Positions 8,242 through 46,560 of a stretch of 64,000 nucleotides of DNA are shown piece by piece. The stretch lies in NCBI RefSeq assembly GCF_056712565.1, contig NZ_CM160072.1. One strand, given 5' to 3'. The notes under the pieces are model-generated. The model was not told the DNA's origin. It worked only from the letters and a program-made list of their open reading frames with translations, and searched no databases. Positions within the stretch are counted from its first letter, which is position 1, and each line of letters begins with the position of its first letter. The position numbers and the translations under genes are program-made.

Positions 8242-9401
8242 ATCAATATGAGGTAAAATTTTTTGTTGATTTAATGGTTAAATAATAACCACAGTGTATT
8301 TTGCTGCTGAAGAAAGACAAAATGAATCTGTGTGTCCCCTCCTTCCCTTCGGAGCACATCCACTATTCAAATTTTACACAACCACGTACGAACAAAAAGC
8401 ATCATCCCGGGTATTGCAGATACCGGTTTCCTGCCGGGAAGAATCATAAACAGAACACCGGGAATAACGCCTTCAGGAATCACCCCCCCTCCTGAAGAAG
8501 AATAAAATAAAGAAGACTACAGTTCCTGCACTGAATGCTGAGTACAATATTTTATGGACAGGATGACATTTTTATAAATAACAAAAACCATTTAATACTG
8601 ATACATCAATAAAATACTTCTTCCCTGCTGACACAGATAAAATGCACCATTTTTTCTTCAAATACTTCTGTATAATCGCCAGCCAATGATGAGAATGGAT
8701 TAAAATAACACTTCTTCGACAAACACAAAAACAGCCTTCATTTTACATCATCATCCAGTTTCAGTTAACCCCGGACGAGCGACAGTGTTTCAGTACAGGA
8801 ATTAAAAGCCAGCTTTTGCTCAGTAAAACACACTCAACTAATAATATCTCAGCAGATATTATCCTGACCAGGACACCTCACATTACTGAATTCTCTTCCG
8901 ACAGTATCACTGCACAAATAAAAAGAACGGGATAAATATTCAGACCGGAAGAATGGTGTCACAAAAGCATTTAATCATTACGCATGACCAGGAAGGGAAA
9001 CACTTAACCACATGGTATCAACAGATATCATTACGTGTGCACTCTTATAAAAAACACACAGAAGAAGTAAGATAATTATAAACGTAAATTTAATATCTCC
9101 CACTGACATCTCCCCCACAATACACTAAAAAATACTCACAGCAGTAAACACAGATACACCTGATAATCATACAGCCGATAAATATTTTCCCCTTTACGGA
9201 GAAATCAGCCTGCTGTTTAACAATAACGGCGTATTTTCATGGAAGGAGATCACCCAGTAACGGATAAGTCCTGATCTCCTTCATGTTAATACGCAACAAT
9301 CCCATCGATTCAAAACAATTTCAGACAGATATTATCTCCGTGAATCCCCCGCCACCTTTCCGGTGCGCGGGGTTTTGTCTTTTTTCACCGGGAATACATG
9401 T

Positions 9402-36679: not shown

Positions 36680-36936
36680 TTAGCGATTATCGAGCTGAGC
36701 GCGAACTTTATTCAGCTCGGTGGTGTTGATTCGATAGGGCTGGCCATTGACGGACTTGATAAGTTTTTGGTTTTGAGTTTTTTGAAGACGGCGAGCGTGC
36801 AGTCGGTCAGCAACAGCCCTTCGCGGCTGTAGCATTCAACGGAAGTGACGCGGCCTGAAGAATCGCGGACGTGCGCAATACGTCTACCTTTAGCGAGAAC
36901 GTGTAAGGTATGTTGTTCCTGACGGGATAAATTCAT
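36680..36936 (-). pseudogene. topAI: topAI/yjhX-family topoisomerase I inhibitor toxin gene with a frameshift in an A-run
   Basis: ATG 36936 to stop 36680 is 257 nt (not a multiple of 3); annotated frame ends early (…[23 protein letters not shown]), while a +1 shift at ACCAAAAAC (about 36765) restores …[28 protein letters not shown] ending just before the yjhQ RBS. Confidence 0.7.
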
Positions 36937-42384: not shown

Positions 42385-43839
42385 AAATTTCACTCATTTG
42401 TAGGATACAGAAAGCAATACAAAGCCCGCATAAACAATTAGCATTTATGTTGTGTAATATTTTTTTGCCAGGCTTATAGTGTCTTTGGCAACCGGTAGCT
42501 GTATTTTATATTTTTTTGTATAAGGTCTCCTGTGAAAAATCTCTTTTCACATTATTTAAATAAACAGAGAACCAGATTAAATACCTGAGTATAAAATCTC
42601 TTCTGATGTTTAATTGATTTGAATGTTCGTAAGCTATATCACTTACTCAATCCATTTTACCCAGAGTCATAAAATAGAATGTCTGTTGATCTCATTTTCA
42701 TATTCCTTTCAGACTGAAGTGCGTTTTCATCACCCGATGAGAAAGAACTGAAGTGATGTTTGCCATAGATTGCGAGATGCCCTGTCTCATTGACTATCTT
42801 GGTGCACCTTTATACCTGTTATACCAGATCAAAAATCACGCAATCCATACAACAAAACCAGATTTGCAATTCGTGTCACAAAATATGTCGATCTTTTTCT
42901 AAGAGGAAGATGCCATGTGAAGCCAGACGAACACTTGCGGTGGTCTTCAAAAACTAAAGATCTTAGTTTAACTATTTGTTTTATAAATAATTTGTTTAGA
43001 GTCTAAACAAGGGGAGCTTTGCAAGCTAACTCAGTGAGCTTGGTGAAAATCAGTGTTTACCCGCCATCAGGCTGAGCATAATTCTCATCATGAAATATGT
43101 TTCCTGGTTTGTGGCTTGTAACTGGTCACTTCTGAAGTCGATCTGGAGAGGCTTGTTGATGTTGGTGTTTTCAGGATGATGTTTCACTTAGTTTGTTTGC
43201 CGTATCGCCCGGCGAATGGCTGTGATTGAGGAAGGTTTAAGTCGTAGTGACCAAAGCTATATTTACCAACGAATGTAGATGAAAAAATCATCTCCTGCGT
43301 TCCCCCATATCTCCAGGATAAAAAGGAATGTAACAATCTCATGGCGTAAGCTGACGAATCAGCAGGAATAATCGCTAGGGACCTAAGAATTAGCATGATA
43401 ATAGCCACTAAGAAATTACTGCGCTCCATGAAATAGCCATTTTGTGGCAAATGGAGTTGACTAATAATGTCATATGTGAGACGGCTAGTTGAACGAATAT
43501 TAAATTTTGCTGAATTTTTTATGTTGATTTTACTTGTTACAGAACATATCACATGATATATAGATAAGATTAGTTGCATTAATGATGAGGGTTATTATTA
43601 GATTCGTATCCGATTGATAAATATATAAAGGTACATAGCATGCAAGAGCATGGCGTTTGTATGGCAACGTTATTATAATTAACAGTTGCTACTCCATTTA
43701 AGTTCACTCAGAAGAACTGGTCCACTTACGTTAGTTATTAAGCAAACGTTCGCTTTTATAAACATAATCAGGATAAAAATGTTGGATTATTGCTAACCCA
43801 GCACAGCTAGTGCGCGTCTGTAATTATAAGGGAAAAACG

Positions 43840-44442
43840 ATGAAGAATAAGGCTGATAACAAAAAAAGGAACTTCCTGACCCATAGTGAAATCGAATCAC
43901 TCCTTAAAGCAGCAAATACCGGGCCTCATGCAGCACGTAATTATTGTCTGACTTTGCTTTGTTTTATTCATGGTTTCCGGGCGAGTGAAATTTGTCGATT
44001 GAGGATTTCGGATATTGATCTTAAGGCAAAGTGTATATATATCCATCGATTAAAAAAAGGCTTTTCAACAACGCACCCGCTATTGAATAAAGAAGTTCAG
44101 GCTTTAAAAAACTGGTTGAGTATCCGTACTTCGTACCCGCATGCTGAGAGCGAGTGGGTATTTTTATCACGTAAGGGGAATCCGCTTTCTCGGCAACAGT
44201 TTTACCATATTATCTCGACTTCCGGTGGTAATGCCGGGTTGTCACTGGAGATTCATCCGCACATGTTACGCCATTCGTGTGGTTTTGCTTTGGCGAATAT
44301 GGGAATAGATACGCGACTTATCCAGGATTATCTTGGGCATCGCAATATTCGTCATACTGTCTGGTATACCGCCAGCAATGCAGGGCGTTTTTACGGCATC
44401 TGGGATAGAGCCAGAGGACGACAGCGTCACGCTGTTTTATAG
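43840..44442 (+). CDS. fimB: Type 1 fimbriae tyrosine recombinase FimB (bidirectional switching)
   Basis: 200-aa product MKNKADNKKRNFLTHSEIESLL...; tyrosine recombinase motifs (…HMLRHSCGF…LGHRNIRHTVWYT). Confidence 0.95.
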   Translation: MKNKADNKKRNFLTHSEIESLLKAANTGPHAARNYCLTLLCFIHGFRASEICRLRISDIDLKAKCIYIHRLKKGFSTTHPLLNKEVQALKNWLSIRTSYPHAESEWVFLSRKGNPLSRQQFYHIISTSGGNAGLSLEIHPHMLRHSCGFALANMGIDTRLIQDYLGHRNIRHTVWYTASNAGRFYGIWDRARGRQRHAVL

Positions 44443-45516: not shown

Positions 45517-45565
45517 TTTAACTTATTGATAATAAAGTTAAAAAAAACAAATAAATACAAGACAA

Positions 45566-45892
45566 TTGGGGCCAAACTGTCCATATCATAAATAAGTTAC
45601 GACAAACTTTTTCAGTTTATTTGTTGGCTTAATATTCTATTGTTATCTTTATTTATAGATGTTTATATTGCATGAGGTGGTTTTTGGAGAGAAGAATGAG
45701 GAAGATGCGTCGAGCCACAGAAACGCATCTTCCTCATTCTTAGCTTTACATATAGCGGAGGTGATGTGAAATTAATTTACAATAGAAATAATTTACATAT
45801 CAAACAGTTAGATGCTTTTTGTCGTTTTTTAATATTTTTATGCTTGAGAAAAAATACGTAACTTATTTATGATATGGACAGTTTGGCCCCAA
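45566..45892 (+). promoter_or_regulatory. fimS invertible promoter element, oriented with the fimA promoter pointing at fimA (phase ON); bounded here by perfect 36-bp inverted repeats
   Basis: TTGGGGCCA at 45566-45574 and TGGCCCCAA at 45884-45892; -35 TTGAGA (45844-45849) and -10 TATGAT (45868-45873) read toward fimA; identity extends to TTGGGGCCAAACTGTCCATATCATAAATAAGTTACG (45566-45601) versus its exact reverse complement (45857-45892). Confidence 0.85.
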
Positions 45893-46011
45893 ATGTTTCA
45901 TCTTTTGGGGGAAAACTGTGCAGTGTTGGCAGTCAAACTCGTTGACAAAACAAAGTGTACAGAACGACTGCCCATGTCGATTTAGAAATAGTTTTTTGAA
46001 AGGAAAGCAGC

Positions 46012-46560
46012 ATGAAAATTAAAACTCTGGCAATCGTTGTTCTGTCGGCTCTGTCCCTCAGTTCTACAGTGGCTCTGGCCGCTGCCACGACGGTTAATGG
46101 TGGGACCGTTCACTTTAAAGGGGAAGTTGTTAACGCCGCTTGCGCAGTTGATGCAGGCTCTGTTGATCAAACCGTTCAGTTAGGACAGGTTCGTACCGCA
46201 TCGCTGGCACAGGAAGGAGCAACCAGTTCTGCTGTCGGTTTTAACATTCAGCTGAATGATTGCGATACCAATGTTGCATCTAAAGCCGCTGTTGCCTTTT
46301 TAGGTACGGCGATTGATGCGGGTCATACCAACGTTCTGGCTCTGCAGAGTTCAGCTGCGGGTAGCGCAACAAACGTTGGTGTGCAGATCCTGGACAGAAC
46401 GGGTGCTGCGCTGACGCTGGATGGTGCGACATTTAGTTCAGAAACAACCCTGAATAACGGAACCAATACCATTCCGTTCCAGGCGCGTTATTTTGCAACC
46501 GGGGCCGCAACCCCGGGTGCTGCTAATGCGGATGCGACCTTCAAGGTTCAGTATCAATAA
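46012..46560 (+). CDS. fimA: Type 1 fimbrial major subunit
   Basis: 182 aa, signal peptide, pilin fold, ...FKVQYQ C-terminus. Confidence 0.95.

Follow-up and report, generated by a model that had tools for sequence, protein, structure and literature searches.

The 64-kb stretch of DNA analysed here (the "window", part of contig NZ_CM160072.1, with positions numbered from its first letter) contains the fim region of Escherichia coli, and this text is concerned with fimS, the invertible, promoter-carrying element that lies between the recombinase gene fimE and the major subunit gene fimA, with fimB located further upstream. Canonical E. coli fimS comprises 314 bp, is bounded by 9-bp left and right inverted repeats (IRL and IRR) and is served by the tyrosine recombinases FimB and FimE. 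The element in the window measures 327 bp, its ends form a perfect 36-bp inverted repeat, and all of its aberrant sequence is fimS sequence of the opposite orientation. It is likely that this element is a chimeric consensus of phase-ON and phase-OFF reads, to which no real DNA molecule corresponds.

Architecture of the fimS Element

Based on its location, its repeat cores, its promoter and the sequence of its predicted accessory sites, the element is fimS, and the fimB-fimE region beside it is identical to that annotated in strain AH19D088, which is the nearest relative of the window. The 9-bp repeat core TTGGGGCCA forms the boundaries of the element and occurs in just two copies, at 45566 on the plus strand and at 45892 on the minus strand, as determined by pattern scanning. 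The fimA promoter within the element is composed of TTGAGA (45844) and TATGAT (45868), separated by an 18-nt spacer and matching the consensus in 10 of 12 positions. Since this promoter is situated at the fimA-proximal end and points to fimA on the plus strand, on which both fimE and fimA are encoded, the element is in the phase-ON orientation, as had been stated in an earlier note on this DNA.

What the element does not have is the architecture by which fimS is defined, namely a length of 314 bp together with differing internal flanks (PMC9993118, PMC6083910). Over 27 bp its internal flanks are identical, and it lacks the IRL-side flank of the reference. The perfect 36-bp inverted repeat (45566-45601 and 45857-45892) constitutes the core of longer arms (45553-45601 and 45857-45905; 49 nt with a complementarity of 90%) that were retrieved in a repeat search. 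Chance cannot have produced it, and its source is plain, because 45575-45601 is the exact reverse complement of 45857-45883. Both the 36-bp repeats and this inverted copy of the -10/start region at the fimE-proximal end had been described in the earlier note and are borne out. Pattern scans of 45566-45892 retrieved neither a GANTC (HinfI) nor a CGCG (BstUI) site.

Differences from Reference fimS

The phase-ON fimS elements of ST95-32 and K-12 served as references for alignment, and AH19D088 for a base-by-base comparison. All three have 9-bp repeats only, with differing internal flanks, as the earlier note had stated; hence, the 36-bp identity is a real departure from the reference. The alignment, which had been proposed there as a check, revealed exactly two differences, of which the earlier note had missed the second.

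The first difference concerns the flank inside IRL, where the reference 28 bp TTTTGACTCATAGAGGAAAGCATCGCGG are replaced by the 27 bp AACTGTCCATATCATAAATAAGTTACG, the exact reverse complement of the IRR-internal flank. The replaced 28 bp held the internal recombinase half-site together with a HinfI (GACTC) and a BstUI (CGCG) site; this accounts for the HinfI site that the earlier note had expected near one end of the reference and had found wanting in the window. The second difference is a 14-nt insertion, CATCTTCCTCATTC, at 45726-45739, which is the reverse complement of 45695-45708 and extends a 3-bp stem to 19 perfectly paired bp around a loop of 12 nt. The resulting hairpin (45692-45741) folds at -34.3 kcal/mol versus -6.7 for the reference. 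It has no T-tract and is not terminator-like, and the terminator scan found none, so that its interpretation as an intrinsic terminator was rejected. Likewise, the duplicated -10 region at the left end was rejected as a divergent promoter, given that it is without a -35 partner and fails the consensus scan. A 36-aa open reading frame (ORF) spanning the hairpin is not on record.

Taken as a whole, the 327-bp element can be reconstructed exactly as the succession OFF1-36, ON38-161, OFF172-185 and ON162-314 of the 314-bp reference, where "OFF" denotes the reverse-complement orientation of reference fimS; every base of the element has a source in either ON or OFF fimS. Identical to reference phase-ON fimS are the segments 45566-45574, 45602-45725 and 45740-45892 (stated as 300 of the 327 bp). 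The novel junctions, with the joining point marked by a slash, are AAGTTACG/ACAAACTTT, GAAACG/CATCTTCC and CTCATTC/TTAGCTTT, or, in a longer form, ATAAATAAGTTACG/ACAAACTTTTTCAG, CCACAGAAACG/CATCTTCCTC and CCTCATTC/TTAGCTTTAC. They show the microhomologies G, ACG and TT, corresponding, in pairs, to 9 nt and 1 nt for the flank replacement and to 3 nt and 2 nt for the insertion.

In comparison with canonical fimS, the element, therefore, shares the locus, the cores, the promoter and the IHF matches, while it differs in the replaced IRL flank, the hairpin insertion, the length and the loss of the HinfI and BstUI sites on which orientation assays rely. Other promoter-carrying invertible elements for Fim-family recombinases are hyxS, with 16-bp inverted repeats, and ipuS, with 7-bp inverted repeats, illustrating that repeat lengths vary (PMC6083910); these are, however, distinct loci with distinct sequences, without 36-bp repeats and without an inverted duplication of the -10 region. 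The features of the locus are compiled in Table 1.

Table 1. Features of the fim switch region in the window.
Feature	Position	Strand	Basis and remarks
fimB recombinase ORF, intact	43810..44442	+	ORF list; slightly longer than the annotated 200-aa FimB; region identical to AH19D088
fimE recombinase gene, intact, 198 aa	44920..45516	+	ORF list; identical to annotated fimE WP_000044711.1 in AH19D088
IHF consensus match TATCAATAAGTTA, outside IRL (predicted site)	45519..45531	-	Pattern scan; fits the published IHF-1 position (PMC9993118)
IRL, canonical 9-bp core TTGGGGCCA	45566..45574	+	Repeat search, pattern scan
Anomalous 27 bp AACTGTCCATATCATAAATAAGTTACG, OFF-type internal flank with inverted -10/start region	45575..45601	+	Alignment, exact reconstruction
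Interior, reference phase-ON fimS 38-161	45602..45725	+	Alignment; Lrp/Fis sites of the literature lie here (PMC9993118)
Perfect hairpin, 19-bp arms 45692-45710 and 45723-45741, 12-nt loop	45692..45741		Repeat search, folding
Anomalous 14-nt insertion CATCTTCCTCATTC, reference OFF-strand 172-185	45726..45739	+	ACG and TT microhomologies at the edges
Rest of element, reference phase-ON fimS 162-314	45740..45892	+	Alignment, reconstruction
IHF consensus match (predicted site)	45798..45810	+	Pattern scan; fits site IHF-2
fimA promoter, -35	45844-45849	+	
SnaBI site, single in the element	45855		
Promoter-side internal flank	45857-45883		
fimA promoter, -10	45868-45873	+	
IRR	45884-45892		
fimA major subunit gene, downstream of the ON-oriented promoter	46012..46560	+	ORF list, annotation

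Rarity and Clonal Background

The novel junctions were searched for in 5,426 complete E. coli genomes, of which approximately 4,700 are fim-positive, as well as in GTDB representative genomes and JGI metagenome contigs. Among the complete genomes, the left junction was found in none, with no match covering at least 80% of the 61-nt probe, and the hairpin junction had no full match, the best full-coverage matches (83.7%) corresponding to the 14-nt gap. Neither of the two junctions was retrieved when the GTDB representative genomes and JGI metagenome contigs were scanned for the exact patterns.

The remainder of the window (63.7 kb) is distinguished from AH19D088, which has an ordinary switch that was assembled phase-ON, by only two single-nucleotide polymorphisms (SNPs; positions 8489 and 12388) and one homopolymer indel (position 36763). 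Given that both changes are absent elsewhere and that the rest of the window is near-identical to AH19D088, the changes are private to the window and confined to the invertible element.

As regards the three background differences, the SNP at 8489 is situated at the edge of a C-homopolymer, which reads C7 in the window and C6T in AH19D088. The SNP at 12388 is located in the gene for Ag43, where the window allele is common (3,869 index blocks), and this difference is probably private to AH19D088. At 36763, within topAI (yjhX), a T6 run is shortened to T5, by which the 85-aa YjhX-family toxin TopAI is frameshifted into ORFs of 74 aa and 51 aa (36712-36936 and 36680-36835, minus strand). This T5 allele was present in none of the 1,661 RefSeq complete genomes having the region. 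The 74-aa product is found in 49 index blocks, including those of otherwise clean GenBank assemblies such as CP041563.1, and none of these 49 blocks contains the fimS junctions. Either the same sequencing error has been made repeatedly, or the toxin has genuinely been inactivated more than once.

Upstream of the yjh/sgc/fim region, positions 1-21650 of the window constitute a mobile-element-rich island, according to the annotation of AH19D088. It contains Ag43 (10646-13765), a CP4-like toxin-antitoxin/antirestriction cluster, fragments of the insertion sequences IS1, IS3, IS5 and IS66, and mtnK/mtnA, and it adjoins fecI. Several pseudogenes, including yjhR and a sialate O-acetylesterase gene, are located between topAI and nanM.

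Chimeric fimS Elements in Other Assemblies

For a survey of comparable elements, composite probes were designed, combining an OFF-type left with an ON-type right junction, as well as their mirror image; a normal genome should not hold both halves. By this search, together with decomposition into ON and OFF segments, at least 16 RefSeq complete E. coli genomes with an ON/OFF chimeric fimS were identified, and each chimera is unique among the assemblies examined. Garbled ON/OFF mosaics of 273-369 bp are present in AH21G053 (NZ_CP196247.1) and AH19E045 (NZ_CP196257.1) and in the assemblies of 23CRST013, 23CRST051, AST46, 377323_2f, 537-20, 204446, 317, 82.0311 and A21 (accessions NZ_AP045773.1, NZ_AP045826.1, NZ_AP043639.1, NZ_CP039404.1, NZ_CP091534.1, NZ_CP025910.1, NZ_CP023357.1, NZ_CP122454.1 and NZ_CP028754.1). 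The K-12 derivatives LTE950 (NZ_CP184740.1) and BZKR2G40 (NZ_CP064682.1) have ambiguity codes (N) in the internal flank beside one inverted repeat, DH5alpha (NZ_CP026085.1) and SCU-484 (NZ_CP051744.1) have a small clean ON/OFF hybrid in the IRL-internal flank, and STEC307 (NZ_CP091018.1) has an in-register 12-nt OFF patch on an ON backbone. In GenBank, a further garbled fimS is found in GCA_052952975.1. These chimeric elements are clearly consensus errors originating from mixed ON/OFF read populations, and the IRL-adjacent flank is a preferred site of such corruption. No paper dealing with the AH strains or with chimeric fimS assemblies was found in our literature search.

Like the element in the window, the public chimeras are mosaics of ON and OFF strands between normal flanks, often with symmetric ends and with the hybrid often located in the IRL-adjacent internal flank; most of the mosaics are also longer than 314 bp (328-369 bp). 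Unlike it, most of them contain Ns or garbled bases; in the window, every segment is exact, and there are just two small OFF patches, of which the central one is out of register.

The most informative case is AH21G053, which stems from the same Melbourne project as AH19D088 and equals the window over 38 kb except for one homopolymer base. Its fimS is 369 bp long, garbled and near-palindromic, and shares with the window the symmetric ends of promoter type (the composite probe matches at 100%). Within one clone, there are, hence, an ordinary ON switch (AH19D088), a scrambled switch with symmetric ends (AH21G053) and the element of the window. In some mosaics artificial palindromes are found, such as GCGACGCATGCGGCCGCATGCGTCGC in AH21G053. 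Across the fim-positive complete genomes, fimS was assembled phase-ON over the full probe in just 243 of 4,721, and the clone of the window accounts for one ON assembly and one ON/OFF mosaic; ST95-32, AREA_R504 and N10, the other top ON matches, are similar in the fim region. Cultures of this lineage may, hence, contain a high fraction of ON cells.

Origin of the Element

In the reading that is favoured here, a culture containing both phase-ON and phase-OFF cells would have been assembled or polished into a chimeric consensus, with a phase-ON backbone into which the 27 bp inside IRL and the 14 nt near the centre would have been taken from reads of the opposite orientation. As the OFF orientation is the reverse complement of the ON orientation, any OFF patch creates an inverted duplication, in this case the extension of the repeat from 9 to 36 bp and the hairpin. 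The underlying strain would have an ordinary 314-bp fimS, like its clone-mates. The artefact is favoured because the same type of error recurs at fimS in independent assemblies, including one of the same clone, and the exact reconstruction leaves no aberrant base that is not opposite-orientation fimS sequence. Besides, further private differences of the window affect homopolymers (the T6 to T5 change in topAI and the SNP at the edge of the C-run), which are places prone to consensus errors. A mixed culture is plausible for this clone, because AH19D088 was assembled ON and AH21G053 as an ON/OFF mosaic, while ON assemblies are generally scarce. What the element is composed of, its uniqueness and the presence of the same error class elsewhere are direct observations; that the element itself originated as an artefact is inferred from them as the most likely explanation. 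The earlier note had itself named an assembly artefact from mixed ON/OFF reads as what would overturn its claim; this has now become the better-supported reading.

There are several points that weigh against a consensus artefact. The left patch is exactly in register, OFF1-36 occupying positions 1-36 of the element, but the central 14-nt patch is displaced by 11 nt from the place of these bases in OFF reads, and an optimal global pairwise alignment of ON and OFF does not put the insertion at the observed place. A column-wise mosaic through nine MAFFT alignments of ON and OFF, made with different parameter sets, cannot rebuild the element, and with six parameter sets neither change can be threaded even alone; column-wise mosaicism, as in a Trycycler-like choice of chunks, is, therefore, unsupported as the mechanism, a result that concerns this mechanism only. 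The element consists of clean, exact segments with sharp junctions, although most documented mosaics are garbled or contain Ns, and its microhomologies (9/1 nt and 3/2 nt) and short inverted copies fit a replication template switch. Of less weight is the one-sidedness of the change, the right end being untouched, since other documented artefacts are one-sided, too. The topAI frameshift does not amount to proof of a poor assembly; with the T5 allele occurring also in clean GenBank assemblies (CP041563.1), it is weak evidence of poor quality.

The principal alternative is a genuine mutant switch that arose when replication switched templates, possibly during a single complex episode of repair, which we regard as rather unlikely. 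In this scenario, a nascent strand ending in IRL would re-pair with IRR over 9 nt, copy 27 nt of the promoter-side flank and return with 1-nt homology; approximately 125 nt further on, its 3' end (...ACG) would fold back on CGT, copy 14 nt and return at TT. Covalent FimB/FimE-DNA intermediates at the repeats could serve as the initiating DNA-protein crosslink, a type of lesion that strongly stimulates template-switch mutagenesis in E. coli (PMC6357072), and both recombinase genes are intact in the window. A real, natural fim switch symmetrised in this way, perhaps triggered by a stalled intermediate of this kind and blind to the FimE bias, is likewise doubtful. The gene conversion between the switch ends that the earlier note had suggested would be better described mechanistically by such a template switch. 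Quasipalindrome-associated template switching is an established class of mutation in E. coli (Lovett laboratory; Ripley model); it lengthens and perfects repeats through copying of the complementary arm and leaves short microhomologies at the switch points, a form that the element in the window shares, and it is stimulated by crosslinks (PMC7202029, PMC6357072). The form of the change agrees with this class: the segments are exact, the novel 27 nt and 14 nt are reverse complements of nearby sequence, microhomology (G, ACG, TT) is present at the switch points, and the hairpin insertion, which is poorly explained by models of read pile-up, has the form of a short-range fold-back copy. The documented dependence of FimE on the flanking half-sites (PMC6083910) is also in line with it. 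However, classical quasipalindrome mutations correct an imperfect palindrome of approximately 15-20 bp with a short loop, whereas the pre-existing homologies in the window are weak, with 9-bp arms 296 bp apart in one case and a 3-bp stem in the other, and with a 1-nt return; furthermore, unlike those mutations, the event in the window is known from a consensus sequence only. It is improbable that two rare complex events should fall into the same 327 bp when only 2 SNPs otherwise separate the 64 kb from a clone-mate, neither junction was found in a second genome, a metagenome contig, a clone-mate or any other sequence searched, and look-alike artefacts are documented at fimS, also in the same clone. 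From the sequence alone, a consensus chimera cannot be separated from a quasipalindrome template-switch mutation.

The remaining explanations carry little weight. A deliberately engineered or edited switch, such as a construct with swapped half-sites for FimE specificity or an artificial edit of the record, is very improbable. Half-site swaps of such logic are reported to have been built experimentally for reversing FimE specificity (cited in PMC6083910), and both changes are surgically clean, each making a perfect palindrome; yet the background is a widespread natural clone and not laboratory K-12, with a KpLE2-type island including Ag43 (in the common allele mentioned above), neither a scar nor a marker nor a restriction site is present at the junctions, it is not evident what the hairpin insertion would have been designed for, as it has no T-tract and is not a terminator, and no paper describing such a construct was found in the literature. 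That a lineage of E. coli carries the element as an inherited natural polymorphism has no support beyond the sequence itself and is effectively refuted: neither junction, in either orientation, is present among the fim-positive complete genomes, the GTDB representatives or the JGI metagenomes, and clone-mates that are identical over tens of kb have either an ordinary (AH19D088) or a differently scrambled (AH21G053) switch. Site-specific recombination or inversion alone was rejected by reasoning, considering that its crossovers take place only in the 9-bp cores and conserve the content, while the element in the window has one flank twice and lacks the other.

FimE Directionality and Significance

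In fimS, four recombinase half-sites flank the two 9-bp repeats; of the accessory sites, IHF-1 lies outside IRL, and IHF-2, LRP-1 and LRP-2 are located inside the element (PMC9993118). FimE is unable to bind half-sites that are in the OFF configuration, and a swap of the flanks is reported to reverse its specificity (PMC6083910). The statement of the earlier note that the asymmetry of the flanks underlies the ON-to-OFF bias of FimE thus agrees with the literature (PMC6083910, PMC9993118). Its prediction of an altered FimE bias is sound, provided that the sequence is real; given the absent junctions, the novelty consisting of OFF sequence only and the chimeras elsewhere, the sequence is probably not real.

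If it were real, IRL would permanently have an OFF-type and IRR an ON-type internal half-site, whichever the orientation of the element. As the two orientations would then not differ in their half-sites, FimE would have no means of distinguishing ON from OFF, and its ON-to-OFF directionality, probably along with most of its activity, would be lost. The outcome would be a slow, unbiased, FimB-driven and, hence, ON-persistent switch, in which the 36-bp arms could support a rare recombinase-independent inversion. The regions of the Lrp, Fis and IHF-2 sites, being identical to the reference, would be unaffected; the replaced 28 bp are situated between the repeat and LRP-2, where a BstUI site has been placed (PMC9993118). 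The stability of the fimE read-through transcript depends on sequences within fimS (PMC9993118), and, speculatively, the hairpin might affect such transcripts.

The element in the window is probably not a real feature. As an artefact, it would mean that "complete" records can hold invented palindromes in phase-variable invertons, in keeping with the RefSeq E. coli genomes that have a scrambled fimS, and that work on inverton repeats, on the orientation of promoters or on fimS typing can be led astray by such records. A search for odd inverted repeats should discount anomalies that consist of opposite-strand sequence only and lie inside known invertible elements, and the RefSeq mosaic records listed above probably need correction at fimS. 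As a real switch, on the other hand, the element would be a natural ON-persistent fimbriation variant in a bloodstream-associated/extraintestinal clone, bearing on how long fimbriae stay ON, and would provide a natural test of the half-site model for FimE directionality. Moreover, it would demonstrate template switching as a way in which the repeats of invertons can lengthen, being an instance of recombinase-associated remodelling of a phase switch.

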